Source: Candidatus Woesearchaeota archaeon
GTDB taxonomy: Archaea > Nanobdellota > Nanobdellia > Pacearchaeales > GW2011-AR1
Assembly: GCA_964498295.1 (NCBI GenBank)
Contig: CAZCGJ010000001.1
Location: 1,669 to 65,668 of the forward strand
DNA length: 64,000 nucleotides
Reading direction: 5' to 3'
A program made the translations under genes and the position numbers. Below are positions 15,995-54,548 of the stretch, in pieces. Numbering within the stretch: position 1 is the stretch's first letter; every line of letters starts with the position of its first letter. A model generated the notes under the pieces. The model was not told where the DNA came from, searched no databases, and saw nothing but the letters and a program-made list of their open reading frames with translations.

Positions 15995-16047
15995 ATAAAA
16001 AACAAAAAAAGAAAGTATTTAAATATAGTCTTGGTTAAATAAATATT

Positions 16048-16461: not shown

Positions 16462-16463
16462 AA

Positions 16464-18386: not shown

Positions 18387-18565
18387 GGTATTCTATCACA
18401 CACTCTCTTCACTCGGGTTAAACTAAATAATAGTTATTATTCAGTAACAACAACCCTATTTAAATCTTTTGATTTTAGAACTACTATCAAGTTACATAAA
18501 AAATAAAAAATAAACACAACCAACTAGAGACAAAAAATTAAGAAATAAAAACCTTCGAAAAATTC

Positions 18566-19117: not shown

Positions 19118-19151
19118 CTTTTTCTTAGAACAAACCCATTTATAAATCTTT

Positions 19152-19859
19152 TTATGAACTTCCAGATTCAGTATAGTCAAAAGATAATAAGAATTCAATC
19201 TTTTTCATTTCTTTGTCAATATAATACTCATCGCCACTAACTAACTTTAGCTGTTTCTCCTTAATCACACTTATGACAAAGTTAGGAAGTTCCTGCTCGA
19301 GACAAACCTTGACTTCACTATCTTTAACAGAACCTTCATTACATACAGTACGAATAAGCATAATTTTATCTAAGCTTGGCAAACCGAAATTATCAAACCC
19401 TACAGAAACATTTAATTCAGAAGAATAAGTAATATTCAAATTAGGATAAACTCTTTTAGCACCCCAAGGAGAAAGACTTGTATAAACTTTTTTACCATCA
19501 AAATAAAATAAAGTCACACCTGAAAACAATTTTTTTAAATCTTCTGGTACAGAGCTCTCAGTCTGCTTAAAACGAACCTTTAAATCTTCTTCAAAAACCT
19601 TGTTTAAATCTGCAGAAGAACTAATCTTTTCAGAATTTTCAGATAAAATTTTTTGATAACTACTTAAGAAATCCTCGGTTAATTTAATATAAAGAGTATT
19701 TTCATATCCTTGTTTTTCAGAGTAGATATTACTCACTGCATTAAAATTCTCTGAAACTTTTGAAGACTGATTAGATATTGCAAATATGATATAGATAAAC
19801 AACAAAAGAGTCATGATCACCATAACACCCACTTCGATAGATGCCTTCTTATTTATCAT
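19152..19859 (-). CDS. Archaeal type IV pilin-like protein (class III signal peptide)
   Basis: N-terminus MINKKA|SIEVGVMVIMTLLLFIYIIFAI. Confidence 0.6.
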   Translation of the reverse strand: MINKKASIEVGVMVIMTLLLFIYIIFAISNQSSKVSENFNAVSNIYSEKQGYENTLYIKLTEDFLSSYQKILSENSEKISSSADLNKVFEEDLKVRFKQTESSVPEDLKKLFSGVTLFYFDGKKVYTSLSPWGAKRVYPNLNITYSSELNVSVGFDNFGLPSLDKIMLIRTVCNEGSVKDSEVKVCLEQELPNFVISVIKEKQLKLVSGDEYYIDKEMKKIEFLLSFDYTESGSS

Positions 19860-20283
19860 AATTGCTCCTCCTTATTACTGTAATAGAAAGATATCCTTTT
19901 TCACAATGACTGCACGGAAAATAAGTTTTATCTGCAAAAAAAGGAACAGAACCTAAAGGATAAAGGTTAAAGGTATAGTTATTAGGAATAGATAATTTTG
20001 GAAGATTAACCATAAACCCTCCAGTAACAGTATTTGTATACTTATAAGCATCATATAGCACTTTTCCTTTACTACTACTATTGAAATCGCTAATAACTGC
20101 ATAAGCTGCAACTCTTTGAGATTCGGAAGAATAAACATTAGAGTCATAATTAATAACAACGGACTTCTGACTAAATTTTCCAGCAATTGAAAAGAACACT
20201 GCAAAGATAACTATTAGCGCAATAGCAATAAGTCCTGCTGCCCAAGACAATCCTTCTCCTGCTGCACGTTTATTTATAATCAC
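19849..20283 (-). CDS. Archaeal type IV pilin-like protein
   Basis: N-terminus MIINKRAAGEG|LSWAAGLIAIALIVIFAVFF; overlaps the neighbouring genes by a few nt (operon). Confidence 0.55.
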   Translation of the reverse strand: MIINKRAAGEGLSWAAGLIAIALIVIFAVFFSIAGKFSQKSVVINYDSNVYSSESQRVAAYAVISDFNSSSKGKVLYDAYKYTNTVTGGFMVNLPKLSIPNNYTFNLYPLGSVPFFADKTYFPCSHCEKGYLSITVIRRSNYDK

Positions 20284-20783
20284 TTTCTCACCCCGTTATT
20301 ATCAGATGAAACCCACCCGACAATTTTAACATTAATAATAGAAGATCCATTGAAATAAAGATAAGTTTCATTTCTAAAAAGACACGAAATTACATTTTCA
20401 GTTTCAGTAGGATAAATAACTGCACAAGTTTGTTTCTTCTCAACTCTTTCAAGAACATCCCCTCCAACAAATGATTTAATTTCAACACCGGATTCATTTC
20501 TAAAACTAAAATCAAAATAGAGATGATAATTATCAATAATTGTTTTATTTAAATCACATTCAGAATACAAATCAAATTTAGAGTAAAAAGTATCATTATT
20601 AATAAACCCGTTCGAAACAAAACAATTCATTAAACGATCATACAGAACTTGAGTTTCATAACCTCGAATATCTACAGGAGTATTGACATATGAAGAAAGT
20701 ACAACCGTTGCCCCTCCAGCAATCAAAACCAAATAAAGTAAAAACATACCTGCATTTATTTTTTCACTAGCTTTTTTATCCAT
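20280..20783 (-). CDS. Membrane-anchored extracellular protein, possibly pilin-like
   Basis: N-terminus MDKKASEKINAG followed by a hydrophobic helix; less canonical cleavage motif. Confidence 0.4.
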   Translation of the reverse strand: MDKKASEKINAGMFLLYLVLIAGGATVVLSSYVNTPVDIRGYETQVLYDRLMNCFVSNGFINNDTFYSKFDLYSECDLNKTIIDNYHLYFDFSFRNESGVEIKSFVGGDVLERVEKKQTCAVIYPTETENVISCLFRNETYLYFNGSSIINVKIVGWVSSDNNGVRK

Positions 20784-20897
20784 TTTACAAAACTCTCCTA
20801 AGATTTATTTTATCAATTGAGAGTTTGTAAGGTAAAAATTTCATAGATTTACCACTAACATTCTTGACTGCTGCGACATAAGGGAGCATTATGCAAG

Positions 20898-21332
20898 TCA
20901 TTTTTTCACCTCAATAGAATAAAGAACTTTTTTATCAGTTGAAATTGCACTAGTAGTTACTAAATAATCACTGAAATAATTTTGAACATATCCGGCTGTA
21001 GCTCCCAAACGCAGTGAAACCATAACGCTGTGATTTAAAGGATCAATTTTAATTAAGTCCCCATAAGAACTTTCCTTCTCACCAGACCTAATAGCTATTT
21101 TATTAAGCTCAGTCACATCCAACACAAAAGTAGTATTTGGTTGAGCGCCATCAATAAGCAATGCAATTTTTTTTGCATAGATTTCTTCTTGAATCAAAGC
21201 CCCGCTCAAAGTATTTCTTGCAAATAAAAAGAAAACAACCATAAAAGCCAAAAGTAAAACGACAGAAATAATTGTAGGCCATGCAATTTCCTCACTATCT
21301 CCTTTTTTTCCAAGATTAAAATTAAACCTCAT
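20898..21332 (-). CDS. Archaeal type IV pilin-like protein
   Basis: N-terminal basic segment ...LGKKG|DSEEIAWPTIISVVLLLAFMVVFFLFA. Confidence 0.5.
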   Translation of the reverse strand: MRFNFNLGKKGDSEEIAWPTIISVVLLLAFMVVFFLFARNTLSGALIQEEIYAKKIALLIDGAQPNTTFVLDVTELNKIAIRSGEKESSYGDLIKIDPLNHSVMVSLRLGATAGYVQNYFSDYLVTTSAISTDKKVLYSIEVKK

Positions 21333-21370
21333 AAGAAAACAAACGAAGAGAGAATTATAAACTTAACGAC

Positions 21371-22387
21371 TTAAAGATTCTCAAAAGAATCTATGTTCCA
21401 TTGTGAAAAACCTTCTAAACTATAATTAGTTAACATTAATCCCCCAACATGATTACTACAAGGATCCGTATTTTTAGGATCATTACAAAAAGAACTATCT
21501 ACGAACCATTTCTTGAAAATAGAATCGCCAGCATTTGAACCGAGAACAAATCCTCCTCCAATAAGAATTCTGGCGCCCAATCCTTTTGTAAAATAAGCAC
21601 CAACAGCACCAGCACTCGCACCCGCAACCCCTCCAATTCTTTGAGCAAAACTAGTAAGAGTAGATTCAATATAAACAATAGACTTAACACCCTCTAAAGA
21701 AGTATTATCATTTAAAGTTGCACTCTTGACGTCTGAAACGACTAATGAGCCGAACAACTCCTGAGCGCTCTGACCCTCATAAGTCCCCCTTAAATAATCC
21801 ATATAACTATAATTATTATTAGGGACTTTATGGCTAACCATATAAAACATTAAGCCAGTAATATTCCTAATATCATCTTCATTTCCAGAGACACCATCTT
21901 TCCCATCTAAAACACTGTTATCGAACTCAATCTTATCACAAATAATTCCTTTAGAAGTAAAAGTCTTTGAATCAAACTCTCTAGAAAATATTTGTAATTT
22001 GCCCTCTCCGAACATTCCCCAGCAATCGGCCATTTCCCTAGATAAGAACATTTTTATTTGATCTTTCCTAGCTTCAACAGTTGTACCCGTCAATTTCATC
22101 GTATTGAATTCTTTTCCTAACTGAGTACAGTTTCCACGGCCAGACTTAGCAGTAACACAAATTTTAGTAGTTTTACATCTAATACTAATAGCATCTTTTG
22201 CGTTTACGCTAACACCTCCGACCTCACTAGGAACCGTAGCTCTCAAAATAATAGAAGCCTGACAAGCAGATCGATCAATAGTATCGCTAGTTGGAAAAAA
22301 GATTGCAATAACCACAAACACAACTAAAGTCATAACAGCAATAATAATACTTACAACAAACCAATTTATATCTCCTCGTTTATTCAT
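21371..22387 (-). CDS. Archaeal type IV pilin-like protein with a Cys-rich ectodomain
   Basis: N-terminus MNKRG|DINWFVVSIIIAVMTLVVFVVIAIFF. Confidence 0.55.
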   Translation of the reverse strand: MNKRGDINWFVVSIIIAVMTLVVFVVIAIFFPTSDTIDRSACQASIILRATVPSEVGGVSVNAKDAISIRCKTTKICVTAKSGRGNCTQLGKEFNTMKLTGTTVEARKDQIKMFLSREMADCWGMFGEGKLQIFSREFDSKTFTSKGIICDKIEFDNSVLDGKDGVSGNEDDIRNITGLMFYMVSHKVPNNNYSYMDYLRGTYEGQSAQELFGSLVVSDVKSATLNDNTSLEGVKSIVYIESTLTSFAQRIGGVAGASAGAVGAYFTKGLGARILIGGGFVLGSNAGDSIFKKWFVDSSFCNDPKNTDPCSNHVGGLMLTNYSLEGFSQWNIDSFENL

Positions 22388-22560
22388 AAAAAAAAGAGCA
22401 TATATCTCTTTTTATATTTATCCTAGCTTAGTAAAATAAGTGGCAATATAATAAACACCATAAGCCAATAACGCCAAAAGTAAAATTAAACCAATCTTCA
22501 CAACTAAGCTTTCTCCAAGATTATCTGCCATCTAAAACATGAGCAAAAAGAGTTAATAAA

Positions 22561-23904
22561 TTATTCCATACTTCTAAGAGAAACAGTATTTTGACCATTA
22601 GGATAACTAAAAACAAAATAGTCCCCGGTAATAGGATAAGAACCATCTAATATAAAAGAAACATTATACAAATAAACCAAGGAACTGGGATTAAAATTTT
22701 CAATCTCGGGCTCACCAAACAATAAATAAGAGTAAGACTCTAAAGGATTGCCTTCATGATAAAAAGTAATATTATACTTATTTACCTGGTTTTTTAAATT
22801 AGACAAATACTCCTTAAATGAATCCTTCGCACAATTTGTTTCAAATATAAAATAAAATTGATCATATCCTAACTTATTACTATAACTCTCATAACCTATG
22901 TTTTTTATACTACACGAAACATCAGTTTTATCTAACTTAAAAGAAAGACCTTTCCATTTTTGAATAGGGCACCTACTTCCACCACCCTCTAAATATGTCT
23001 TTGAGCAATCCACAGTATCCCACTCAACACTAATCTCTAAATCACATTTTGTAGAGTCCTTACCTGCTAAAACGTCTTCATTCAAAAAACAAGAAAAGTT
23101 TGCACTAGTATCTTGTATTGATAAAATATTACATTCAGGAACAGAATCATGAGGGACATACTTAACATTCTGTAAAAAAGAATCATCACAGACAAAATCA
23201 AAACGAATAACAGAATCTCTAAGTAATTCTAATTTACAATCTTTGAAGCTAGGATTGATATTTCTAACTAAAAATCTTCCATCAGATTTTATAAGTGTTT
23301 GATCATAGTATATAGAATCTGTAGAAAAAGAACAACCAGGATTTTGGGAACCATAAATAGTCCTAATAGCACCACCAAGACTACTTGGATAAAGTTTTAC
23401 CACACTAGATCCTTTATCTACTTGCAACCCGTATGGGACTTGAGTAATTTGCAAGCAATTAGCAATAGAACCCCAACTATTTACACAGCTAGTAGAAATA
23501 CTTGCATCTAAATTAATAGACTTACAAATATTTTGTGCTTTACAAATACCAAAAACTTTATTTTGTAAAACAGGATCAACAATAACACTCGAAGAGTATA
23601 GCTTACTTATTGGAGAACAAAAACAAACCTCTGTATTATTTGCCATAATAACCCATCCTTTAGGACTTTCAATAAAAACCTCCTTTGTTTGACCATCCGT
23701 CATTTTTCCAATCTCATAAACAATAGTATCAAGAGTATTTCTTGCCTGCTCCTCTTTCAAATTACTAGCAACAATCTTCCCCAATGCAAATAAAATAAAT
23801 AAAATAAAAATAAAAACGCCAATTCCAATTACTAATTTTACTATTTCTTCAACAGCTAAAGTTCCGCCCCTCTTTGACCTCATAAAAATAAGAAAAGAAC
23901 ACAA
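22561..23904 (-). CDS. Large (447 aa) pilin-like protein with a Cys-rich ectodomain; first gene of the co-directional cluster
   Basis: N-terminus ...MRSKRG|GTLAVEEIVKLVIGIGVFIFILFILFAL; the true start may be the Met at 23883. Confidence 0.55.
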   Translation of the reverse strand: MCSFLIFMRSKRGGTLAVEEIVKLVIGIGVFIFILFILFALGKIVASNLKEEQARNTLDTIVYEIGKMTDGQTKEVFIESPKGWVIMANNTEVCFCSPISKLYSSSVIVDPVLQNKVFGICKAQNICKSINLDASISTSCVNSWGSIANCLQITQVPYGLQVDKGSSVVKLYPSSLGGAIRTIYGSQNPGCSFSTDSIYYDQTLIKSDGRFLVRNINPSFKDCKLELLRDSVIRFDFVCDDSFLQNVKYVPHDSVPECNILSIQDTSANFSCFLNEDVLAGKDSTKCDLEISVEWDTVDCSKTYLEGGGSRCPIQKWKGLSFKLDKTDVSCSIKNIGYESYSNKLGYDQFYFIFETNCAKDSFKEYLSNLKNQVNKYNITFYHEGNPLESYSYLLFGEPEIENFNPSSLVYLYNVSFILDGSYPITGDYFVFSYPNGQNTVSLRSME

Positions 23905-23955
23905 ATTATAAACTTAACTAAAAATATATAAATAATAAAGATTAAGAAAAAAATA

Positions 23956-25287
23956 ATGAAAGGATTAGAAAACCTACTCAAACGAACAGGAAGATATCTC
24001 GCGTCTACAATTTCTGCAATAGCCCTTTATTCTTCCGCTCAAGAACCTGCTAAAATAGAAGTAGCAAAAGATGGAAGTTGGAAAAAAACCTCGGACATAA
24101 CTCTTTATTTTCAAAGTACTACCGGTTCGCAAGGAAGAGATCCTTCAAAAAACCCATATAACCAATCTAAAGCAATGGCGTGTTTTGTAGGAAGAAATAA
24201 TCCGGATGGAAGCCTGACAATAACTTATTTAACAACTGATCCTGAAAACCCTTCAAAAGATGCAGCATATGCCTCGTTTAATTCATCATATGTATCTTTT
24301 CTTTCCAGCCAAAATTTGGAAGCAAGAGTTTCACAGAGAACAATTCTTATGGATGCTGGAGGAAATATCTCTTTCGAAAAAGCACAGCTTAAAGAGGAAG
24401 TAACAAACCCTCTGATCTGGGTCGGTCAAAAAATATATGAAAAAGCAGATGAATATGACCCTGTAAAAAAAATAGGAGACGAAAGCGGATTTTTTAGCGG
24501 AGGCACATTAGATATAATCAGAAACTATGCCGATTCATTTGAAAAAACCTCTAATGAAGGTTTAGAAAAAGTAAAGGGAAAAGAAATAAGCATAAACCAA
24601 ATACCTAAGAGATCTAGAACTTCTTGGATAACTACGACAAAAAAAGAAATAGGTACAGAAACTACGCTTGTATTCTTAGGAGATAAAGAAGGAAAAACAA
24701 AAATTAGTGTTTATTATGACATCGGTCTAATGAAAGGAAGAGATACGGGAAGAACAAAAGCCTATACAGGTTTAATAGAAGTAAAAACATCGGCAAAAGA
24801 ACAAACACAAACTTGTTTAGAAAAAGGAACAGGTACAAGCAATCCCTTAGAGGGGTTTTGGAGAGAAAAAGAAAATAAGAACAGTCTAGTATATATCACT
24901 CCAAAAGGAATTTTTATTTCTCTTCCAGAAATGCTATTTGAAAATAAATATACTTTAATGGCAATAGCTAATAATTCTAAAAAAGAAAAAGAGATATATG
25001 TATCTAGAATAAAAGATAGCAAGTTCAATATTGATATTAGAGAAACTGGAAAAGTAGAACAGATAAGCAACCAACAAATAAAAGCAGCCTGTATAATTGC
25101 AAACGCACCAGATATGGAAATAACCTTAGAAAGAGCTCCGGAATTAAACAGAGGACTAGAAGAAATCACTCAATCAGAAACACAATCTGGAAATGATCAG
25201 GCAAAACCAATAGAAAAGCCAAAATCTACACCGCCAAAACAAACAACAGGCCCTTCCTATGATATTAGAAATTGGATGAAGAAATAA
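23956..25287 (+). CDS. Hypothetical secreted protein (443 aa) inserted between two pilin-like transcription units
   Basis: Signal-peptide-like N-terminus; no recognisable domains. Confidence 0.45.
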   Translation: MKGLENLLKRTGRYLASTISAIALYSSAQEPAKIEVAKDGSWKKTSDITLYFQSTTGSQGRDPSKNPYNQSKAMACFVGRNNPDGSLTITYLTTDPENPSKDAAYASFNSSYVSFLSSQNLEARVSQRTILMDAGGNISFEKAQLKEEVTNPLIWVGQKIYEKADEYDPVKKIGDESGFFSGGTLDIIRNYADSFEKTSNEGLEKVKGKEISINQIPKRSRTSWITTTKKEIGTETTLVFLGDKEGKTKISVYYDIGLMKGRDTGRTKAYTGLIEVKTSAKEQTQTCLEKGTGTSNPLEGFWREKENKNSLVYITPKGIFISLPEMLFENKYTLMAIANNSKKEKEIYVSRIKDSKFNIDIRETGKVEQISNQQIKAACIIANAPDMEITLERAPELNRGLEEITQSETQSGNDQAKPIEKPKSTPPKQTTGPSYDIRNWMKK

Positions 25288-25324
25288 TTAGAAACAAACT
25301 AAATCTACAGCATTAAAAGAATAA

Positions 25325-25924
25325 TTATTTTTTAGAAACAACTTTTTGATAAAAATGAAATTGCCCATTTGAATCTAAGATAAAGGTATTCACTTCGGTA
25401 GGAAGTTTAAACACATTAGAGCAAGAACTAGGCAAAGTATGTTGACCCACAATAATATCACAAATAAAAGTATCGCCTATCCCTTCTGTACTAAAAAGAG
25501 AAACCTTTGCACGAGGAAAAAAAGAATATTTCTTAAAATAATACTCTTGCATTTCAGGTCCGGCAGGCCAATTTGCTAAAATACAATAAGAAGTACCTAG
25601 AGACCACCAACAATCTTTATTAGAAACATTGTAAGAAACCTGCCATCCAGAAACTTCAACTAAACTTTCATCATTTTGGATGACAATAGCTCCATTCTGT
25701 TCAATAACACCAGGAACAAGCTCATCAGTGCCGTTAATTTCATTGTATTTTTCTCCCTGACTAGTATTCATGCTAGGGAGCCATCCTTTGATTATATCTC
25801 CCCAACTTGCTTTCATAAAAATAGGAGTAAGAATCAAAACAATTAGCAATAGTCCTAGAAACAAATACATCATTTCAGTCCAACCCATTTCAAAACCTTT
25901 TTTGTTTTTTATAATAGACCTCAT
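25325..25924 (-). CDS. Archaeal type IV pilin-like protein
   Basis: N-terminus MRSIIKNKKG|FEMGWTEMMYLFLGLLLIVLIL; its ATG overlaps the stop of the upstream small pilin ORF (ATGA). Confidence 0.6.
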   Translation of the reverse strand: MRSIIKNKKGFEMGWTEMMYLFLGLLLIVLILTPIFMKASWGDIIKGWLPSMNTSQGEKYNEINGTDELVPGVIEQNGAIVIQNDESLVEVSGWQVSYNVSNKDCWWSLGTSYCILANWPAGPEMQEYYFKKYSFFPRAKVSLFSTEGIGDTFICDIIVGQHTLPSSCSNVFKLPTEVNTFILDSNGQFHFYQKVVSKK

Positions 25925-26088
25925 TTAAAACAACCCCCGAAACGCATACAATCATAAAACTTAGATAAGTAATTAGAAATAGTATCCCTAGCAAAAAACA
26001 AAATAAGCGCTGCAACAACCAAACCAATTATTGCAAGTATCATCCAAATACCTTGTAAAGTTATTTGACCTTTTTTTATCAACCTCAT
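25921..26088 (-). CDS. Small (55 aa) archaeal pilin-like protein, absent from the ORF track; candidate major pilin
   Basis: Hand translation gives MRLIKKG|QITLQGIWMILAIIGLVVAALILFFARDTISNYLSKFYDCMRFGGCFK: a class-III signal motif with Gln at +1, one long hydrophobic helix and a short tail. Confidence 0.6.
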   Translation of the reverse strand: MRLIKKGQITLQGIWMILAIIGLVVAALILFFARDTISNYLSKFYDCMRFGGCFK

Positions 26089-41029: not shown

Positions 41030-41961
41030 TTTAGGTACCCACTAATAAATAGTAACTTAGGTACCGAAAGATATATAAAGAATAGGTACCTAATTATATT
41101 ATGAAAGAAATAATTTGTCCGCATTGCAAAGAAAAAGAGATTAAGAAAGATGGAGTAAGAACAACAGAAAAAAGAGGGAAAATTCAAAGATACAAATGTA
41201 ACCTTTGCAATTATCGATTTGTCGTCGATGATGGCTTTTACAGAATGAGAAATAATGAAAGTATTATCACAATGTCAATCGACATGTATATTTCTAATTT
41301 GTCAAGTAGAAAAATGAGAAATCAATTAAGCAGACATTTAAACACAAAAATAAGTCATATGAGTATTCTTGATTGGGTAAGAAAATATACTTTAAAAGTT
41401 AGTAAATTTGTTGATAAATTAGGTTACAACATGGGAAATAGTTTCTATGCTGATGAAACCTTAATTGATTGTGGGGGAAGAGATGATAGATTTTGGTGTT
41501 GCATTGATTGGGATACTCGATTAATTACTGGAGTTCATTATAGTTTATCTGGTAATCCAATAGAAGCACAAAAATTCTTATTTAAGTCAATTCAAAAGGG
41601 AAAACCTAAATTCATCCAGACAGATGGTGGAGTTTTCTATCCTAAAGCATTTAGAAAACTCTTCTACTCTAATAAGATTGGTGGTTTAACAGTCGAGCAT
41701 AAGATACAAAATGCAAGTGTTACTAAAATACATAATTATAGAATAGAAACTGTTTTTATGAAGATTAAAGACAGAGTAGACGACTTTAGAGGATTGAAAG
41801 CATTATGGTCTGCCCCAATACTTATGAATGCTTTAATAATTCAACATAATTTCATAGAAGCTCATACAACCTTAGATGAAGTTCCATGCAATAGAGCAGG
41901 ACAAGAGTTAAACTTGGGAGAAAATAGATGGCTAGGATTAATTCATTTATCCAGTAGGTAA
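41030..41961 (+). mobile_element. IS-like element: DDE transposase gene preceded by three TAGGTACC direct repeats; clear terminal inverted repeats not found
   Basis: Single transposase ORF; motif TAGGTACC repeated at about 41030, 41059 and 41085, all within 70 nt upstream of the ATG. Confidence 0.4.
41101..41961 (+). CDS. DDE transposase with an N-terminal zinc ribbon (IS6- or IS1595-like)
   Basis: CPHC...CNLC zinc ribbon; DDE-type motifs ADETLIDC, CIDWDTRLITG, FIQTDGGVFY, NYRIETVFMKIKDR. Confidence 0.6.
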   Translation: MKEIICPHCKEKEIKKDGVRTTEKRGKIQRYKCNLCNYRFVVDDGFYRMRNNESIITMSIDMYISNLSSRKMRNQLSRHLNTKISHMSILDWVRKYTLKVSKFVDKLGYNMGNSFYADETLIDCGGRDDRFWCCIDWDTRLITGVHYSLSGNPIEAQKFLFKSIQKGKPKFIQTDGGVFYPKAFRKLFYSNKIGGLTVEHKIQNASVTKIHNYRIETVFMKIKDRVDDFRGLKALWSAPILMNALIIQHNFIEAHTTLDEVPCNRAGQELNLGENRWLGLIHLSSR

Positions 41962-42108
41962 TGCTGGAGGTTGAGGTATAGAACTTCCACCATTAGTAAT
42001 AGGAGAAGAATCTCCTGTTAACCAAAAGTAAACTCCGACTCCAACAGCTAAAAGGATTAAAATTATTACAATCCAAATCCATGCTGAGCCTCTTTTATTG
42101 TTTATCAT
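41947..42108 (-). CDS. Small (53 aa) pilin-like ORF not in the ORF track; overlaps the transposase 3' end by about 15 nt
   Basis: Hand translation MINNKRG|SAWIWIVIILILLAVGVGVYFWLTGDSSPITNGGSSIPQPPALPTG; 1-nt gap after the upstream secreted-protein gene. Confidence 0.5.
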   Translation of the reverse strand: MINNKRGSAWIWIVIILILLAVGVGVYFWLTGDSSPITNGGSSIPQPPALPTG

Positions 42109-46096: not shown

Positions 46097-46102
46097 ACTA
46101 AA

Positions 46103-46185
46103 TGGGGAGAAGAGGACTCGAACCCCTGTAAGCGTAAGCTACGACGGCCTAAACGTCGCCCGTTTGACCACTCCGGCATCTCCCC
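46103..46185 (-). tRNA. tRNA-Leu (anticodon TAG), long variable arm
   Basis: Hand fold: acceptor GGGGAGA/TCTCCCC, anticodon stem CGACG/CGTCG with loop TTTAGGC (G37), long extra arm, T-arm AGGGG-TTCGAGT-CCTCT. Confidence 0.85.
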
Positions 46186-46232
46186 AAAGTGTAAATATCT
46201 CTAATTAAGACTACTTAAAAACATATCTATAA

Positions 46233-49200
46233 TCAACCATGTTCAACACAAGAAATTCCGCCGCCTTCAAAAGTACAAGAATAACCTTCATCCCCCAACT
46301 CGAAGGCTTGTCCTTCAGTTACACCAATACTTGTTTTAGCACCATCTTTGTATAACCAATAATTACTACCTTCCATTCTAATAGAATATCCAGTATTATC
46401 GCTGCCTCTTAAAATATTATAGTTTGATCCGTCATTTAAAACAGAAAAATCTCCACTCGTAGAACTAAAAGTAGACGCAGTGCTAGCCCCAGTACCGGAA
46501 GTTCCAGAATTAGAAGCAGTAGAAGCATCAGCAGTAGCTCCTGAATTTGAACTACAAGAAATATCTTTTCCATCAAAGGTACATCTGTATCCTGCAATAT
46601 TATAAAATGGAGATCCTAGAATAACTTTTCCAATACGAGTATCGTCTTTGTATAAATCATAACTATTCTTGAAAATCCTATATGCTGTAGAGCTGCCTTT
46701 GTTCATAATCCTGTAATAACTACCAATGTCTTTTAGAGTAATATCTCCAGAACTACTAGAATCATCTAAAACAGAAGAGTCTAAACTAGGAGCACTTGAT
46801 CTCTGGCTAGAAGCAGATTTCTCTCCCTCTGAATCTTTAATATTTAAAATAGTTTTAACAACTTTAATATATAATTGAACTCTAAGATACAAAGCTTCTG
46901 CCTTATTAGCATCCAATTTTGCATTAGTATAAGCATCTGTCGCCATTCCCAAAACAGGAGAAAGAGCATTATCGATGCTAGATACTCCGCCTTTAACAAT
47001 AGCAGGACTTAAAGTCAACTTAGCAATACTCTTTTTTAAATCAGATAATTTTTCACTAGTCTTTTTCATATCATCTGAAACAACTCTCTCGCTACTATTT
47101 GCAGCCAAATATTCTATAGCTTCTGAAATACTACCTACTTTCTGTAAAACCTTCTGTGCATTCTGTACAGACTTATTATCTAACCAACAGGTCAAATTTT
47201 TACTTCCACAATAACCTACACTTTGCCAATTCTTAGAGTCTTTTCCAACACCAGGATTTTGTGTTGCACATATTCTTGTAATTCCTAAAAGAGAAACATC
47301 TGGATTAATTGCATTGTCTACTCCTTCCTGTACATTTGGATTCAATAATGAATAAATTGAAGAAGTACCAGATATACATTCGTCTTCTGTTGTAATGCCT
47401 CTCGCATTACCTTGTTCTTGCACATATAAATCATTAATAACATCTACAGCAAAATCAGTAGAAACAGAATTAAATCCACATTCTTCCTGATCGTTTACAA
47501 CCAAACACATTTGTTTATATCCGGAAGGTGCAGTAAAATCTTTAGTCTCGCTAGCCTGTTCACCCTTAGTCAAATATCCAGAAATAATATGCACTTGTGC
47601 AGGCATACTATAATAACTCAACGAAGGAGGATCTTTCAAGTAAACAGTATACGATGCGCCAATATCAGTACCGGCATAAATATGATAAAATACTTTATAC
47701 TGTGAAGTAGCTGGAACAGTTGCAGTTGTATAAGGTATAGAAGAGAAAGTACCATAGAATTGTGCAGGAGATTCTGGTTTCAACATAGACTCTATAGCCT
47801 CTGCAGAAGTAGGAATAGAAGTTCCCAAGAAATTTCTACAATATGTAGAACCTATTTCCTCTACATTTCCAAATTTATATGCCGTGAAAGAAGTAGATGC
47901 ATAATTATTTTTGAAATAATCAATGCTGCTTTGCATATTATCCCATGATTGTTGGAATGTTGCATATTCTCCACCATTAGCCTGTCCACCCCACTTAGCA
48001 GTATAAGCTAATTCTGCAAGACTAGGAATTATATTTTTCATAAGTGGAGAAACCTGTCTCCAGAAAAATTCACATTTGTAAACAGCAGTTATTTCATCAC
48101 AAATTCCTACGTGTTTTCCTGATTTTGAATATTCCGATAAACATTTCTGTTGTGCTTTTAATATAGAAATATAACCTTCAATACCTGCATGGATACCTGT
48201 TAAACAGACAGGCATATAAACATCTCCTCCAAATCCTACAAAGTTCTTCAAACACAAAACCGCACTCCCTAAAATACCTGATTGAATTACATTAGGAACA
48301 GCAATTTTTCCTCCAAAATTACATCTAGAAGTAGGGCATATTACAGGATCACAAACATTATACATAAACTTACATTCTTCAGGGCTAAAGAAATCTTGAC
48401 AAACGAAATTATTAGAACTTGCACCCATCATACCTGGCTCTACTTCAACATTATCTCCTACATTAGGAATACTAAACTTTCTTACACCACTCTTATAATT
48501 AGAAGCCACATATCTAATAGCTGTCTTAGCTCGAGAAATTAAATTTCTAATCTCGCTTGCCTGTATGCTACAACCACTAAATCCTTCAAAATTATTGTTA
48601 TTAGTATTGAAACTCTGACAAATATCGTCATTCATTCTTTGGTCCTCTCTACCATTTGGACCTACATTACATAAATACATGAAAGTCACTTCACCAGCAT
48701 CAGTATAGCCAGAAATAGCCTTTCCAGTTGTAATTGTACTTACAACATTACTTGCAGCAGTTGTTACAGTATTTCCTTGAGTTGAAGGAATATAAACGTA
48801 CCAACCTTCTTTCAAGTCTACAGGAACATATGCAGGCATACCTTTATCGTTTGCAGATTCATAGAATCTAACAGTAGGATTTGTATAATTATTTACACAT
48901 TTAATATTAGAAGTCATGTCTACATCCCATCTAGCAGTATCTCTATTATTTGGCAAACCAGTCAAGTCTGTTTTCAATAGTACATTACTGACTTGCTTAT
49001 TACTCAAATCAAAAGTATATGTACTTGCAACAGAACTACCACTACCTAATATGAGCAAATACCAAACTCCGCCAGAATTAGTTGTTGCAACACTTCTACT
49101 GCCCTCTCCCTCAAATTCTTTAACGGCAGAACCGAAAACATTTTTCAAAGTAGCCTTATCAATAGCAACGGAAGAAACAACTTTAACTTTATTATTATCA

Positions 49201-52076
49201 ATAATCGGTTTGAAGTAAGTACCTCTAATAGACTCTGGAAGTTCGCTCAAAGAAGTTTCATATCCCTTATTAGCCTCAGCATTCCTAGCAATATCATCTA
49301 GCTGTGCACTTGTATCAGCATTAATTTCAGATCTCAATCCTTCAGTAATAGTTGTAGAACCGCTCAAACGATTGTATAATAAACATTGTCTAGCCTCAGA
49401 CCAAGAATTAATTTGTTTTGCAGAAACAATTTGACCATTACTTGCTTTATACGAACAAGTACTCCCACTCTGGAATTCAGAAATATTCCCATGATATTGA
49501 TTTTTTATTTCATCATTAATGCCTTCTATCGCGCCAGTGTACGAATCAACATCTTTTGAAATATCATCTGAATAATGATTATAACAAACATCGACAGTAG
49601 GATAATTTCCAGCAGCTACTTCTTGTTTACATTTTACCTTATACACTTGCATAACTTCTTGTCTTGCAGTACTCTGACCAGTAAATCCAGTAATTAAATT
49701 CTTAACATTTAATGCTAATCCCGTAGCCAAACAAACTGCCTTCCAACCTTCAACAAGTTTTCCTAACTGAGCATTCTTTTCTTCCCATTTAGCAATAGTC
49801 TTGTTAAGCTCATCTGCTTGATCTTGAGCCTGCTCAGGACTAAGCTTGATTACTCTTTGTTCAATACCTATATTAAAAGTAAAATTTGCTTCAGAAGTTG
49901 TCTTCAATTCAGAAACAATACTCACATACGCATTCTTCTCAACTTGAACATCACTTAAATATAAACTATATGCCTCATTCTTTGTTGCACCACTACTCAA
50001 CTTTTTAGGTTCAATAACAGTATTAGAATCAGTACTATAGGAAAGCCTAAATGCGCCGTCCGACAAATAACTTACTTGTTTTCCGTCTTGCAATTTAGTA
50101 CTATAATATTCAAAAACTACTTCTTTTGAAGTAATAGTCTTGACAATTAAATAATCATTAGTATTCTTTGTTCCAGAATTAAGAGATAAATTAATTTGAT
50201 CCCCTTCATGCCACAAAATACTTCCAGTTTCATCAGGAACATTTTTGTTATTCATTACTAATTCAAAAGTTTTCGAACTGGAAGGTGCTGGTTTAAATTG
50301 AACAATACCAATAGTATGATATTCATTATTTGCAAAAACAGATTTGTATGCATTTGTAGAATCAGTTCTTTGAGCAATAGTTAACTGACTTCGAATACTC
50401 TCAGCCAAAGCAGAACTAGGATATAATTCTAAAAACTTATTCATTAGTTCAACTTTCTTAATATTATAGTCTAAACCTTTTTGCTGTAATCTTTTAGCAA
50501 GTTCTATTTCTTCAATCAATGCACTCTCACCATAATTTGTGCCTGTAGAATTAGATAAATAAGAATAATCATTTAATAATTCAGAAAGAACATTTTCACC
50601 TTCTTTGAAATAAGTAGATGCAAGCTCCTTATCTGATTGAGTAGTAGTTGTTTGAACATCTTCACCTTCGGTAGTTACAAGCCCTTTAAAAGAAATGCCT
50701 TTAACGGAATCTCCAGGCCTATCTCCGGAGAATAATATTTTAATGTTGCTTGCAGGAGCTTTTGTTGTATCAATACTATTTTTGAACTCGGTTAAAGTCA
50801 TAGCAACATCTCTTTTACTATTAAAAGTATTATAGACGTTCGCGGAAATTTCTGAATAAACTTTATTTTCCAAAGCAGATTCACTTTTAACCATCACAAC
50901 AAATTCAGTATCTGCAGATATACTCTCTATAGGTTTTTTTGTAACTCCTGCATACGCAAAATAATAGTTTCCTTCATCAGAAGGCACTCTGCTCGCCATT
51001 TCATAAGTACTCATAATATTTTGTGAATTAGTAACATTGGCTTTATACAAACTTAACAAACTTAAATCAAGAGTTTTTCCACCACAAGAAACCTTTACAG
51101 TTCCAGTATCTCCTGCAAGTACATTTAAGTTAGTAACTCTACAGCCAGTGTTACCGAGCTTAGTAGTTTTTCTTGCTTCCATTTGAACACCGTCAACACT
51201 TAAGATAACAGAATCTTCAGGAGAATCAATATCATTTAATTTAAGTTGAAGTCCAGCACGACAATAAAAACCTGGAAAATAAAATAATCCACCAGTCTGT
51301 CCACGAGTTAATGTTTCTGTTCTAATTTTTGCTCCATCCGGAGTCAAAACTTCAATAGTTGCTTGATCATTTTGAACATCAACAAGCCTAAGTACTCCTC
51401 TGCCTTGCCAAAAACCTTGCAGATATTTGCTCGATTCCCATTCATCATCACTCATTGTTCTTAAATAAAATTCAGAGCTACCAACACCAAATGCTTTTTC
51501 AGCATCATAATAAAGAGTAGCTGTTAAATTACCAGAAACATTTTTTGGAGAAGCAGTCTCATTGCTCTGTTTTTTTAAGATAATAACTACATAACCAATA
51601 TTATTTACAACAGGGCTGCCCAATAAAGTATTGTAACTATTCAAAGCAGCTCTAGCAGGATAATAACTAACGCCTGCAATTTCTGTAGGATATTTTCCTC
51701 TAAAAGAAATTGATTTTATAGAAGAAACTTTAATCAAGGGGTTTACTTTAGCAGATTCTAGTTGGCAGAAAACAGGAACGTTTTGTTCGGCAAGTAAATC
51801 AGATCTTACTACGCTAGGAGTACATCCCGAAGGAGGAATCATAACAAGAAAATCAGTATTTCCATAACAACGATTATTTGCAATATCATCTGCCAACTGA
51901 GGCCAGTAAGTATTAATATCTGTGGAAGAATAAACACTAGAAAGACTAGGATTAACATATTGATAATTAGTACTTCCAGAAAAAGAAGCAGTACCAGTAG
52001 GATTACTTAAGTCAGCACACACAAATCCTACTGAAAAAAACAAAACTGATAAAAATATTAAATTTAAATTTCTCAT
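46233..52076 (-). CDS. Giant (1947 aa) secreted/surface protein with a Ser/Thr/Ala-rich linker and two C-terminal Cys-containing repeats of about 60 aa
   Basis: Signal peptide MRNLNLIFLSVLFFSVGFVCA; no catalytic motifs; C-terminal repeats ...Y(R/S)I...Y.LYKD......G...G.....G(Y)xCTF(D/E)G..ISC. Confidence 0.6.
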   Translation of the reverse strand: MRNLNLIFLSVLFFSVGFVCADLSNPTGTASFSGSTNYQYVNPSLSSVYSSTDINTYWPQLADDIANNRCYGNTDFLVMIPPSGCTPSVVRSDLLAEQNVPVFCQLESAKVNPLIKVSSIKSISFRGKYPTEIAGVSYYPARAALNSYNTLLGSPVVNNIGYVVIILKKQSNETASPKNVSGNLTATLYYDAEKAFGVGSSEFYLRTMSDDEWESSKYLQGFWQGRGVLRLVDVQNDQATIEVLTPDGAKIRTETLTRGQTGGLFYFPGFYCRAGLQLKLNDIDSPEDSVILSVDGVQMEARKTTKLGNTGCRVTNLNVLAGDTGTVKVSCGGKTLDLSLLSLYKANVTNSQNIMSTYEMASRVPSDEGNYYFAYAGVTKKPIESISADTEFVVMVKSESALENKVYSEISANVYNTFNSKRDVAMTLTEFKNSIDTTKAPASNIKILFSGDRPGDSVKGISFKGLVTTEGEDVQTTTTQSDKELASTYFKEGENVLSELLNDYSYLSNSTGTNYGESALIEEIELAKRLQQKGLDYNIKKVELMNKFLELYPSSALAESIRSQLTIAQRTDSTNAYKSVFANNEYHTIGIVQFKPAPSSSKTFELVMNNKNVPDETGSILWHEGDQINLSLNSGTKNTNDYLIVKTITSKEVVFEYYSTKLQDGKQVSYLSDGAFRLSYSTDSNTVIEPKKLSSGATKNEAYSLYLSDVQVEKNAYVSIVSELKTTSEANFTFNIGIEQRVIKLSPEQAQDQADELNKTIAKWEEKNAQLGKLVEGWKAVCLATGLALNVKNLITGFTGQSTARQEVMQVYKVKCKQEVAAGNYPTVDVCYNHYSDDISKDVDSYTGAIEGINDEIKNQYHGNISEFQSGSTCSYKASNGQIVSAKQINSWSEARQCLLYNRLSGSTTITEGLRSEINADTSAQLDDIARNAEANKGYETSLSELPESIRGTYFKPIIDNNKVKVVSSVAIDKATLKNVFGSAVKEFEGEGSRSVATTNSGGVWYLLILGSGSSVASTYTFDLSNKQVSNVLLKTDLTGLPNNRDTARWDVDMTSNIKCVNNYTNPTVRFYESANDKGMPAYVPVDLKEGWYVYIPSTQGNTVTTAASNVVSTITTGKAISGYTDAGEVTFMYLCNVGPNGREDQRMNDDICQSFNTNNNNFEGFSGCSIQASEIRNLISRAKTAIRYVASNYKSGVRKFSIPNVGDNVEVEPGMMGASSNNFVCQDFFSPEECKFMYNVCDPVICPTSRCNFGGKIAVPNVIQSGILGSAVLCLKNFVGFGGDVYMPVCLTGIHAGIEGYISILKAQQKCLSEYSKSGKHVGICDEITAVYKCEFFWRQVSPLMKNIIPSLAELAYTAKWGGQANGGEYATFQQSWDNMQSSIDYFKNNYASTSFTAYKFGNVEEIGSTYCRNFLGTSIPTSAEAIESMLKPESPAQFYGTFSSIPYTTATVPATSQYKVFYHIYAGTDIGASYTVYLKDPPSLSYYSMPAQVHIISGYLTKGEQASETKDFTAPSGYKQMCLVVNDQEECGFNSVSTDFAVDVINDLYVQEQGNARGITTEDECISGTSSIYSLLNPNVQEGVDNAINPDVSLLGITRICATQNPGVGKDSKNWQSVGYCGSKNLTCWLDNKSVQNAQKVLQKVGSISEAIEYLAANSSERVVSDDMKKTSEKLSDLKKSIAKLTLSPAIVKGGVSSIDNALSPVLGMATDAYTNAKLDANKAEALYLRVQLYIKVVKTILNIKDSEGEKSASSQRSSAPSLDSSVLDDSSSSGDITLKDIGSYYRIMNKGSSTAYRIFKNSYDLYKDDTRIGKVILGSPFYNIAGYRCTFDGKDISCSSNSGATADASTASNSGTSGTGASTASTFSSTSGDFSVLNDGSNYNILRGSDNTGYSIRMEGSNYWLYKDGAKTSIGVTEGQAFELGDEGYSCTFEGGGISCVEHG

Positions 52077-53923
52077 CTAAAATTCAATTCGACGCTCGAA
52101 ACCTCCCATTGTGCATAATTAGCCTCTAAATCAGATATACTAGTCGGAGTTTTAAATGTAGGCACATCGATCCTTAATTCATTATAATTAGTTAATAATT
52201 CATCTGTAAAATAATCTTGCGTACTGCCTCCGCCAACTATAGCCGAATCAATACTTTGTGCAGGAATATCTAAATCAAAACATTTACTTTCTGTAGATCC
52301 AAATATACCTCCAATACTACTGGAAGGAACATCTAAACATTTTTGTTGTTTTATTCCAGCAAAACTTATAGAAGTATTTGAATAAACATAAGCAGTTACA
52401 TTATATTCTCCTTCTGCAAGTCTAACCACTTTATCTTCTGGATAACTAAATACAGAAGTATAATCATTTGAAGAGAAAACAATATTTGCTTTTCCTACAG
52501 AAGACATAGAAACGTTTATTGTATGTATTTTTTTCATCATAATATCTGCATTGTCTTCTCTATTAGTAGATATAATATATGATGATGAAGTATAATTTTC
52601 AGAATATGCATGTAATATTCCATTAACACAACTAGGAACATCTGCTATCAAATAAGACTCATCACTCGAAACTTTCTTTGTACTTCCCAAATCGCAAGTC
52701 TCATCTAAACAACTAAAACTTAATCTAGCTTCGATCGGATTCAAATCTAAATCAGTAGTACTTACTCTTACCTTCTTATCAGAATTTGCACAAATAACAT
52801 TATTATCAATAATTTCATCGCCCGTTAAAATTGCTTCTCTTGCCTGACTATTTTTGATTATGGCAACAACACCAAATTGAAATAAGTCATTTCCGTCGAA
52901 AAACTGAACCAAGACAGGGAACTTTATATCATAAACAAAATGATAAGGAACAAAACATAAACCAAACATACTAAGTCCTTGTTGAGTTCCTACAGGTTGA
53001 ACAACTTTATCCCCATACATCTGCACGCTTGTTGGCCAAGAGGAAGAATACATGAAGTTTACATTCTCATCTACTTTCTCACCTAAATCTACAACGAAAT
53101 AGGAATTTTTTTTATCAGATAAATCATAATAATTTCCAGCAACTTTTAAGAAAGCGATATTATCTTCCAAACCTAAAGAAATATTTCTTTTTGTTAAATC
53201 TTCATTAAACATTCTAGGAGAACAACCGAAATCAACACCCGTTACAGGAGCATACAAATACATAACATCCAAACCATATGCTTCTAAAAATCCGTCTGAT
53301 TTTTCTTTATCGTAAATCTTTGAAGCTAAATCATAAAACTTTCCAAGTTTAGATTTAACAGTTACTTCGTGTTTACTAACGGTAGCTGATTGATTTTCAA
53401 AAGTAATAAAAACAGGATTGTCTAAAGAAACATAGACGCTATCAGAATTTATATTAACATTTACAGAACCATCATAAATATCTACAAAAATCCCAGCACT
53501 ATTTAAAAAATCAAAATTACAATTATTTATTCCTTCATAAATAAATCGTGTTAATTCTTGATCCATTTCTTCAATAGTGGGTTTTTGTTCAACAATCATA
53601 TTATTTCCAGAAACAAACATCCAGTAAGGAACTGCACCACCGTAAAAATCTAATTGAGAAGAAGAAGGAGCATATGAACTACCAGGATAAAATTTTAATT
53701 CTTCAAGATAAAGATGTCCGCCTTGTTGACCTAATAAATTTATACCTAATTTTGCTCTATCAGAAATACAAGCTAAATATGCATCTTCTCCTTGCTTTAG
53801 TTCTTTTGAACCACCTGGTAAAGAAGTATTATTAATTAAGAAATATATTCCAATCGCAGCTACGACGAGAATTCCAATAATAATAAAAACAGTTACCTGA
53901 CCCCTCTTTTGTCTTTTAATCAT
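52073..53923 (-). CDS. 616-aa extracellular protein with an archaeal prepilin-type N-terminus, translationally coupled (ATGA) to the giant gene
   Basis: N-terminus MIKRQKRG|QVTVFIIIGILVVAAIGIYFLI; large Cys-containing ectodomain. Confidence 0.55.
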   Translation of the reverse strand: MIKRQKRGQVTVFIIIGILVVAAIGIYFLINNTSLPGGSKELKQGEDAYLACISDRAKLGINLLGQQGGHLYLEELKFYPGSSYAPSSSQLDFYGGAVPYWMFVSGNNMIVEQKPTIEEMDQELTRFIYEGINNCNFDFLNSAGIFVDIYDGSVNVNINSDSVYVSLDNPVFITFENQSATVSKHEVTVKSKLGKFYDLASKIYDKEKSDGFLEAYGLDVMYLYAPVTGVDFGCSPRMFNEDLTKRNISLGLEDNIAFLKVAGNYYDLSDKKNSYFVVDLGEKVDENVNFMYSSSWPTSVQMYGDKVVQPVGTQQGLSMFGLCFVPYHFVYDIKFPVLVQFFDGNDLFQFGVVAIIKNSQAREAILTGDEIIDNNVICANSDKKVRVSTTDLDLNPIEARLSFSCLDETCDLGSTKKVSSDESYLIADVPSCVNGILHAYSENYTSSSYIISTNREDNADIMMKKIHTINVSMSSVGKANIVFSSNDYTSVFSYPEDKVVRLAEGEYNVTAYVYSNTSISFAGIKQQKCLDVPSSSIGGIFGSTESKCFDLDIPAQSIDSAIVGGGSTQDYFTDELLTNYNELRIDVPTFKTPTSISDLEANYAQWEVSSVELNFR

Positions 53924-53990
53924 TGATAAAATAAGAAAAATAAGATATATAAATATATTTATAAAACAAAAAAGTATCGAAGTCTAATAA

Positions 53991-54061
53991 GATCCCATTG
54001 TCTAACGGTAGTACGGCTCTTTGACGTGGAGCAGGCCGAGGTTCAACTCCTCGTGGGATCA
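53991..54061 (+). tRNA. tRNA-Val (anticodon GAC) with a non-canonical D-arm
   Basis: Acceptor GATCCCA/TGGGATC, anticodon stem GCTCT/GGAGC with loop TTGACGT, T-arm CGAGG-TTCAACT-CCTCG; I could not fold a standard 4-bp D-stem by hand; TATA-like TTTATAAAA about 26 nt upstream. Confidence 0.6.
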
Positions 54062-54215: not shown

Positions 54216-54482
54216 TTAGTGTTTACCACCAAGAACTTGTCCCCAATTCTCTTTAAGATATGCTACTTTGAAAGATTTCTTATCGAGCTTTGCTAAAATA
54301 CACAAATCACCAAAAAAATCCTCTGGAAGAGTTCTATTCTCGTTATAGTAGCTTTTAAGAGTTTGATAGTTAATTTTTAGGCCAAATTGTAACAGGCCAC
54401 GCAAAGAAGGAGAATTAATTCTTTCAACAACTAGATCTAAGAACTTTCTCTGATATCCTACTTTAAATTTTATTCTCGTCAT
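54216..54482 (-). CDS. Hypothetical protein (about 89 aa from the internal ATG; the ORF-caller start is a GTG inside a GC-rich hairpin region)
   Basis: ORF only; start uncertain. Confidence 0.3.
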   Translation of the reverse strand: MTRIKFKVGYQRKFLDLVVERINSPSLRGLLQFGLKINYQTLKSYYNENRTLPEDFFGDLCILAKLDKKSFKVAYLKENWGQVLGGKH

Positions 54483-54548
54483 CGTAATCTGGAGGCGCGC
54501 TTCGCGCAATATTTCACGCGACACTGCGCAACTATAGACATGGGAAAC

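Follow-up and report, generated by a model that had tools for sequence, protein, structure and literature searches.

A giant secreted protein and a partner with a prepilin-type N-terminus form a syntenic, probably envelope-associated gene pair in Pace- and Woesearchaeota-type DPANN archaea

Among the giant secreted DPANN proteins that have been proposed for host contact are the SPEARE proteins of Nanohaloarchaeota, which are reportedly giant surface proteins and are said to carry recognisable protease, adhesion and nuclease domains. The two-component S-layer of Sulfolobales combines a lattice-forming canopy, SlaA, with a stalk, SlaB, which is anchored by a C-terminal TM helix; archaeal S-layer proteins usually diverge quickly. 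Further giants are the 'large murein-transglycosylase-domain proteins' of Castelle et al. 2021 (PMC8204110; also PMC9723730, PMC10936187), whose SLT-bearing members have been proposed to bind or degrade bacterial walls (PMC8204110, PMC9723730). Class III (prepilin-type) signals also occur on large non-pilin surface proteins, e.g. the binding proteins of the bindosome (bioRxiv 10.64898/2026.04.22.720090).

Here we describe a locus at which a class III signal and a giant secreted protein occur in adjacent, overlapping genes. It is located on contig CAZCGJ010000001.1 of Candidatus Woesearchaeota archaeon (GCA_964498295.1), within a stretch of 64,000 nt (positions 1,669 to 65,668) that was analysed as a whole and is referred to as the window. 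The features of the locus, in window coordinates, are:

46102-46186, minus strand: tRNA-Leu(TAG), found by ARAGORN; syntenic neighbour downstream of the giant
46233-52076, minus strand: gene for a Sec-secreted protein of 1947 aa (the giant)
46233-47177, minus strand: lineage-variable C-terminal tail of the giant (aa ~1634-1947; stop codon 46233-46235)
52073-52076, minus strand: ATGA start/stop overlap of the two genes, 4 nt, indicating translational coupling
52073-53923, minus strand: gene for a protein of 616 aa (p616) with a class III (prepilin-like) signal
53991-54061, plus strand: tRNA-Val(GAC), found by ARAGORN with Rfam in agreement; syntenic neighbour upstream of p616

The interval between the tRNA genes holds only two long ORFs, both on the minus strand. 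The original prediction for this locus had described this layout, the overlap of the giant's start with the p616 stop via ATGA, and a Ser/Thr/Ala-rich linker with two C-terminal repeats ending in CTF[DE]G..ISC. ARAGORN and the ORF coordinates reproduce the layout, the overlap and the repeats are as described, and all descriptive elements of that prediction are correct. No Pfam, NCBIfam or PHROG family was found for p616 or the giant. When the PDB was searched by phmmer and by profile with both proteins and both family alignments, nothing significant was retrieved (coiled-coil noise only), and no specific fold relative was found for either protein.

Synteny was analysed in 80 species-representative DPANN genomes (GTDB), and the screen of the 80 loci covered just those neighbour genes and tRNAs that are present in the window itself. 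The gene for the giant directly follows that for p616 in all 71 testable loci, and the pair occurs in 465 GTDB species representatives. At 64 of 75 junctions the genes overlap, by four nt in 32 cases and by other lengths in 18, or are separated by 0-30 nt (14 cases); the other 11 have larger gaps. The surroundings are largely kept as well. A tRNA-Val(gac) is found within 3 kb upstream of p616 in 52 of 64 loci and L44e upstream in 40 of 51, while tRNA-Leu follows the giant in 37 of 46 loci and TFIIB is downstream in 39 of 46. The widely kept order is tRNA-Thr/NDK/S3Ae/L44e/orf102/tRNA-Val/p616/giant/tRNA-Leu/(NADK)/TFIIB. Pacearchaeota contigs, which reach 965 kb in length, show it as well, with proteins 36-42% identical. 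Throughout the clade, both tRNAs and the housekeeping genes on either side are kept with the pair (36-70% protein identity). Distant relatives of p616 (640-670 aa) again have collinear homologues of the giant next in order. The pairing, which had been called unusual, is real and obligate, but an entire clade of archaea has it as a rule, and it is not peculiar to this genome.

These results bear on the proposal that the block is an integrated or exchangeable island, bracketed by tRNA genes, which encodes a novel appendage. tRNA genes do flank it on both sides, and the GC content of the giant's gene is marginally higher (up to 0.354 versus about 0.31-0.33), but there is no GC step between the block (0.30-0.354) and the rest of the window (0.30-0.345). 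Two checks had been suggested, for direct repeats of the tRNA 3′ ends and for variability of the block among relatives. No repeat in the region touches either tRNA, and the adjacency of the pair in every testable locus speaks against a variable block. An integrase was found neither in the block nor among the window ORFs scanned, and there were no PHROG matches. The fixed syntenic position in relatives, with both tRNAs and the flanking housekeeping genes conserved along with the pair, refutes the island reading, to which we accord virtually no probability. tRNA-Val and tRNA-Leu are conserved syntenic neighbours, not integration sites, and their bracketing of the pair is tempting but misleading as evidence for an island.

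The median identity is 43% for p616 and 36% for the giant, compared to 49% for S3Ae and 37% for NDK. The scaffold thus evolves at the pace of housekeeping proteins, and always with its class III-signal partner. The two genes form an ancient, always-paired and fixed-position module of Pace-/Woesearchaeota-type DPANN archaea, which we consider to be probably part of the cell envelope or of a host-contact apparatus.

p616 starts with MIKRQKRGQVTVFIIIGILVVAAIGIYFLI and shows the cleavage-site-like sequence KRG/QVTVFIIIG (the slash marks the site). It has a short basic leader, and a hydrophobic helix of ~20 residues begins just after the site; this hydrophobic segment, QVTVFIIIGILVVAAIGIYFLI, has a hydropathy of 2.91. 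The predicted structure of p616 consists of:

aa 7-30: hydrophobic helix
aa 31-39: flexible linker (low confidence, variable)
aa 40-66: helix
aa ~90-360: α/β domain
aa ~380-616: three β-sandwich domains, a region with stalk-like fold matches

The motif [KR][KR][GA]/Q-V-T-I-F-I-I is found in 243 of 250 family members, behind leaders of 3-69 aa. In these 243 members, K or R occupies position -3 in 89% and position -2 in 89%, G or A occupies -1 in 97%, and on the mature side T is found at +3 in 85% and F at +5 in 88%; Gln at +1 was the selection criterion for the set. The cleavage-site-like motif hardly varies although the leaders ahead of it differ widely in length. The N-terminus of p616 is therefore not a plain signal anchor, and the evidence supports the prepilin-type N-terminus that had been predicted.

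Methanococcal pilins cannot be processed by EppA without a Gln at +1 (PMC4390842), and that of p616, judged from the sequence, fits an EppA-type pilin signature compatible with EppA specificity. With the modular type IV pilins PilB and PilC of Streptococcus sanguinis (PMC8179133, PMC9934059) and the EppA-processed Epd pilins of Methanococcus (PMC4390842), p616 shares a pilin-type leader with G/A at -1 and a large functional module behind the N-terminal helix; the Gln at +1 is shared with the Epd pilins. In one rival explanation, p616 would be a genuine modular pilin, either a minor or a tip subunit, which bears the giant at the tip of a host-reaching type IV pilus. The class III motif is of the Epd type (PMC4390842), large domains grafted on modular pilins have a precedent in S. 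sanguinis PilB (PMC8179133), and TFF systems 1 and 4A occur in DPANN (bioRxiv 10.64898/2026.04.22.720090). In addition, a pilin-like ORF of 55 aa (KKG/QITLQ) and several class III-like ORFs are encoded at 15-26 kb beside a VWA adhesin. p616 differs, however, from modular and Epd pilins in that it gave no pilin fold match, and the variable, low-confidence linker interrupts the helix and parts the hydrophobic segment from the globular part, so that there is no continuous α1 helix packed on a pilin-fold domain. Assembly ATPase and platform genes were found neither among the window ORFs scanned nor among the neighbour genes of loci L001-L004, and neither the window nor those loci that have Pfam-marked gene calls showed an ATPase, platform or peptidase gene beside the pair. 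More generally, no type IV filament ATPase or platform gene was recognised among the window ORFs scanned, and no peptidase A24 or other class III peptidase in the window of 64 kb, where no ORF combines several TM segments with GxGD; these negatives also count against the anchoring model favoured below. The genes with which the pair keeps synteny are ribosomal and TFIIB genes rather than pilus genes. We regard a minor or tip pilin as unlikely.

Like p616, the sugar-binding bindosome proteins GlcS, AraS and TreS of Sulfolobus carry a prepilin-type signal and a hydrophobic helix in front of a large globular ectodomain, and in both cases the genes lie apart from those for filament assembly (bioRxiv 10.64898/2026.04.22.720090). 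p616 differs from them in lacking a substrate-binding-protein domain and a neighbouring ABC transporter, and in being coupled to a giant secreted partner. We propose that p616 is a membrane- or filament-anchored stalk or adaptor.

The giant has an N-terminal Sec-type signal, MRNLNLIFLSVLFFSVGFVCA followed by D; the predicted Sec signal is thus present, and such signals are conserved across the family. Beyond the signal peptide there is no TM segment or hydrophobic anchor. A lipobox at Cys20 was considered and rejected, being non-canonical with a Cys that is not conserved. Searches returned 646 homologues, most of them with 33-73% identity over 64-95% of the length; the remaining matches cover the core only (30-36% of the length). 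The conserved body extends from aa ~50 to ~1650, with blocks at 51-350, 500-600, 700-850 and 1050-1650, and 30 Cys are near-invariant in the family. The predicted structure of the giant without its N-terminal 747 residues is only moderately confident (pLDDT 66.8). Housekeeping-like conservation and 30 fixed Cys are unusual for an adhesin, a type of protein that is expected to evolve fast. This counts against the anchoring model favoured below and could point instead to a structural or enzymatic core role.

The main rival explanation is a two-component S-layer like that of Sulfolobales, in which the giant would be the lattice-forming canopy and p616 the membrane-anchored stalk. However, no sequence similarity to any PDB chain, SlaA and SlaB (e.g. 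PDB 8qox) included, was detected for either protein or family profile, and neither sequence nor specific fold homology links p616 or the giant to SlaA/SlaB. The match of p616 to SlaB does not go beyond a generic β-sandwich, and equal scores are reached by Gram-positive pilins and by carboxypeptidase domains. The anchor of p616 is at the opposite end, an N-terminal helix of class III type versus the C-terminal TM helix of SlaB. Finally, the Cys-rich giant with exchangeable, enzyme-bearing tails in its family would be atypical for an S-layer protein. An S-layer is a serious candidate, which we nevertheless consider rather improbable.

The tail of the giant begins past an invariant CWLD motif (aa 1630). 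It consists of a helical segment, a Ser-rich linker, a first β-repeat, a Ser/Thr/Ala linker and a second β-repeat:

aa 1777-1844: β-repeat 1, ending in CTF[DE]G..ISC
aa 1876-1947: β-repeat 2, ending in CTF[DE]G..ISC

The two repeats are 41% identical (E 1e-9), and four close homologues (P0002, P0003, P0005, P0010) have one copy each. With aa 1770-1947 as query, no match was obtained elsewhere. In relatives the position of the tail is taken by SLT, Hydrolase_2, DUF1615 or TPR domains, and all accessory domains sit in the tail. An HMM built from the SLT tails of the family detects SLT in 9 of 120 relatives. It is negative for the giant of the window, and there was no Pfam match to SLT (PF01464) at E<=1; a hidden SLT domain was thus rejected, and the lack of recognisable catalytic motifs stated in the original prediction is borne out.

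As SLT is absent here and an optional tail module in relatives, the giant differs from the murein-transglycosylase-domain proteins as described. Two SLT-annotated Pacearchaeota proteins (P0118 and P0097) are nevertheless full-length homologues of the giant (35-36% identity over 65-90% of its length), and their loci show the same synteny with a p616 gene. The family is probably fam00969, a link made through such SLT-annotated Pacearchaeota homologues. Homology over the body is collinear and full-length, SLT-annotated members included. The analysis shows a universally conserved scaffold with several exchangeable tails, of which SLT is only one. Searched passages of the literature on SLT giants (PMC8204110, PMC9723730, PMC10936187) mention neither the partner gene and its fixed synteny nor the conserved body and the optional nature of SLT.

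Lytic domains in some relatives and the lack of an anchor in the giant would also fit a released, diffusible lytic or toxic exoprotein, with p616 as a co-expressed export or maturation factor that does not anchor it; predatory peptidoglycan degradation has been proposed in the literature (PMC9723730). Yet most members, the giant of the window included, are devoid of a catalytic domain, and a conserved structural body of ~1650 aa would be costly for a diffusible enzyme in so reduced a genome. That the giant is tightly and stoichiometrically coupled to a multi-domain protein with an anchor speaks for a complex instead, and we consider the exoprotein very improbable. There is a likeness to the SPEARE proteins in that both are giant secreted DPANN proteins proposed for host contact, but no search revealed a sequence relationship, and the body of the giant has no recognisable domains.

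We favour, with a probability of about one half, a vertically inherited, clade-defining two-gene cell-surface module in which p616 serves to anchor the giant and to display it. p616 would be cut after [KR][GA] by a class III signal peptidase of the EppA/PibD type, and its hydrophobic N-terminal helix would keep it in the membrane or, as with the bindosome proteins, in a short type-IV-filament-like assembly. The β-sandwich stalk would project outward and the α/β domain would capture the co-produced giant, which would be presented as an elongated scaffold built from helical rods and β domains. The part of the giant that touches the envelope of a partner or host cell would be the exchangeable tail at its C-terminus. 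This tail would be a peptidoglycan hydrolase (SLT, SleB-like) in some lineages, while here it would consist of two small orphan β-modules, most likely for binding, which are carried on flexible Ser/Thr linkers. The surface appendage or host-contact system suggested in the original prediction is plausible and compatible with this evidence.

Among the archaea that are uncultured, Pace- and Woesearchaeota belong to the most abundant. The 'bacterial wall attack' of the literature has been inferred from the SLT domain on some giant proteins; as SLT occurs in only 9 of 120 relatives, wall attack cannot be the general function. For envelope proteomics, cryo-ET labelling and the modelling of complexes, the pair offers two defined proteins as a target, and the tail repertoire might serve to indicate the type of host. 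Tentatively, and as a possibility well short of an even chance, the pair may be the core of an undescribed clade-wide envelope machine, a class III-anchored, disulfide-locked giant scaffold with novel folds and plug-in C-terminal effector or binding modules, which mediates attachment to the host wall and, in SLT lineages, its local breaching. If true, these uncultured archaea would have in this machine their long-sought organ of host contact, one that differs from S-layers, from pili and from SPEARE proteins.

The window is an AT-rich segment of an archaeal chromosome (~32% GC) whose genes include TFIIB, NAD kinase, the ribosomal proteins L44e and S3Ae, NDK, PolB, FEN1, Sua5 and FtsY. Between tRNA-Leu and tRNA-Val there are exactly two long ORFs, and both are on the minus strand:

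46102-46186, minus strand, tRNA-Leu(tag) (ARAGORN)
46233-52076, minus strand, 1947-aa ORF ("giant")
52073-53923, minus strand, 616-aa ORF (p616)
53991-54061, plus strand, tRNA-Val(gac) (ARAGORN)

ARAGORN and the ORF map thus bear out the two-gene content of the original prediction, including the ATGA overlap of p616 and the giant. Its description also fits both N-termini, the S/T/A linker and the pair of C-terminal repeats.

The same prediction had regarded the tRNA bracketing as typical of an integrated or exchangeable island, and by its own criterion this claim is refuted. Full-length homologues (646 hits for the giant, 700 for p616) are all from DPANN, labelled Pacearchaeota, Woesearchaeota, Nanoarchaeota or just "archaeon". 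In a scan with a single genome for each GTDB species, 465 p616 relatives were found, and the loci of the best 80 were analysed by tblastn and ARAGORN. In these, the giant directly follows p616 in all 71 testable loci. The flanking tRNAs are largely kept, with tRNA-Val(gac) at most 3 kb upstream of p616 in 52 of 64 testable loci and a tRNA-Leu after the giant in 37 of 46. TFIIB lies downstream of the pair in 39 of 46 and L44e upstream in 40 of 51. The prevalent order, which is that of the window, is tRNA-Thr / NDK / S3Ae / L44e / orf102 / tRNA-Val / p616 / giant / tRNA-Leu / (NADK) / TFIIB, and it is unchanged on contigs of 317-965 kb where giant identity is just 36-42%. Neither tRNA overlaps a direct or inverted repeat, GC is similar in the block (0.30-0.354) and in the rest of the window (0.30-0.345), no integrase or phage-like family was found in the block or the scanned window ORFs, and neither protein of the pair has a PHROG match. 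Therefore, the tRNA bracket is ancestral synteny at a fixed position.

The sole mobile-element-like gene recognised in the window is a DDE_Tnp_IS240-type transposase ORF (41101-41961, plus strand; E 1.9e-11), which lies outside the block, ~2.4 kb upstream of TFIIB. One related locus (GCA_902385655.1, L004 1-717) carries a phage-integrase-family gene ~8 kb upstream of p616, past NDK. This gene does not adjoin the pair, and none was seen in the other loci with listed gene calls. In one MAG (binchicken_co27_484), near-identical tRNA-Val/p616/giant/tRNA-Leu/NADK/TFIIB blocks occur on two contigs, which probably reflects redundant strains in the bin rather than a real duplication. The small orf102 (54216-54524, minus strand, as the pair), between L44e and tRNA-Val, has kept its synteny with a median identity of 55% in 36 loci. 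It has no Pfam or PHROG family; it could regulate the pair or be a housekeeping gene that has escaped recognition. Downstream of the pair, just past TFIIB/S8e, two Pacearchaeota contigs (879 and 965 kb) have a second, still larger ORF that extends beyond the end of the locus (4444-4952 aa; L001 20165-26951, L002 19173-26951), and so these genomes have more than one giant gene in the region.

The junction of the two genes was compared in 75 loci: 32 have a 4-nt overlap of the p616 stop with the giant start, 18 another overlap and 14 a gap of 0-30 nt. The pairing is kept even in a distant p616 tier (640-670 aa). Two giants from this tier (L086, L088) are collinear with that of the window over the 700-850 block as well as the N-terminal domain. 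The L086 giant aligns through the Cys-rich core too (35% identity), at whose start the L088 giant runs off its contig. Median identities over the 80 loci are 43% for p616 and 36% for the giant, compared to 37% for NDK, 49% for S3Ae, 58% for L44e and 84% for TFIIB. Judged by these values, the constraint on the pair is housekeeping-like, which is unusual among surface proteins.

The N-terminus of p616 was surveyed in 250 full-length members, including the distant tier from an exhaustive profile search. A Gln directly precedes the hydrophobic core in 243; positions are numbered relative to this Gln (+1), the feature that defines these 243 members. K/R occupies -3 and -2 (89% each), -1 is G (70%), A (27%) or S (3%), and V/I/L at +2, T at +3 (85%), F at +5 (88%) and I/V at +6 and +7 follow. 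A site that stays invariant whatever the leader length is the hallmark of a class III signal that undergoes processing; a plain signal anchor is not expected to show one. Because the site is near-invariant despite leaders of 3 to 69 residues, the predicted prepilin-type N-terminus is supported and a plain anchor is disfavoured. In Methanococcus Epd pilins, which share the +1 Gln, this residue is the determinant for EppA processing (PMC4390842).

The AlphaFold model of p616 (mean pLDDT 84.9) has a helix (7-30), a low-confidence, sequence-variable linker (31-39), a second helix (40-66), an α/β domain (~90-360, pLDDT >90) for which the fold search listed no relative, and three β-sandwich domains (~380-616). 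Given the interrupted helix and the lack of a pilin fold, p616 is best read as a surface protein with a class III anchor and does not resemble a filament-building pilin; a tip-pilin model is less likely. Bindosome proteins are likewise class III-anchored at the surface (bioRxiv 10.64898/2026.04.22.720090).

Class III-like N-termini also occur elsewhere in the window. A minus-strand run at 15077-26088 (ORFs 25921-26088, 22561-23904, 20898-21332, 19152-19859, 18566-19198, 15077-15994) adjoins a 640-aa VWA+Big_7 protein (16464-18386), and a further such ORF is at 41947-42108. None of these ORFs has a Pfam family; one is a pilin-like protein of 55 aa (MRLIKKG|QITLQGIWMILAIIGLVVAALILFF). The run may be a pilin/adhesin cluster with the processing motif of p616. 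A further probable surface adhesin, 687 aa long and with four Big_9/cadherin-like repeats, is encoded at 10643-12706 on the minus strand.

The giant, like its homologues, has a Sec signal, and no membrane-spanning hydrophobic segment was found beyond it. Its body has conserved blocks (aa 51-350, 500-600, 700-850, 1050-1650), and 30 Cys are each kept in ≥96% of 120 homologues. Pfam, NCBIfam and PHROG gave no match to the family, and no PDB sequence match was significant. A CWLD motif at aa 1630 is invariant; the tail past it is 6 to 1369 residues long, depending on the relative, and all recognisable domains of relatives are confined to it: a lytic transglycosylase domain (SLT, 9 of 120), Hydrolase_2 (SleB-like), DUF1615 and TPR. 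The window tail has none of these and consists of a helical segment, a Ser-rich linker and two β-repeats (41% identity, E 1e-9) joined via the S/T/A linker:

aa 1777-1844, β-repeat 1, ending CTF[DE]G..ISC
aa 1876-1947, β-repeat 2, ending CTF[DE]G..ISC

A sequence search detected homologues of this tail solely in the closest relatives.

The giant probably belongs to the "large murein-transglycosylase-domain proteins" of Castelle et al. 2021 (fam00969; PMC8204110), because SLT-annotated Pacearchaeota proteins are its full-length homologues, and the link is made through these. That family has been taken as evidence for peptidoglycan attack (PMC9723730, PMC10936187). The window giant is SLT-less, with an orphan repeat tail instead. 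In the searched passages of all three papers we found no mention of SLT as a minority tail module, of the body as a conserved, structurally orphan scaffold, of its invariable pairing with a class III-signal protein, or of the fixed housekeeping locus. Measured against those passages, this is a new SLT-less version of a DPANN family that had been noticed but not characterised, and its obligate partner had gone unremarked.

The best-supported reading is that p616 and the giant together form an envelope module. After processing, p616 would be retained via its N-terminal helix and would serve the co-translated giant, which lacks an anchor, as stalk and adaptor; the exchangeable tail of the giant would be the distal functional end. 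A released exoenzyme is less likely. The main rival is a two-component, SlaA/SlaB-like S-layer, which agrees with the operon logic, with the universal occurrence of the pair and with a p616 that resembles a stalk. However, it has no homology support and fits poorly with enzyme-bearing tails and fixed cysteines. The pair would be of greater interest if it turned out to be the organ by which these archaea contact their hosts.
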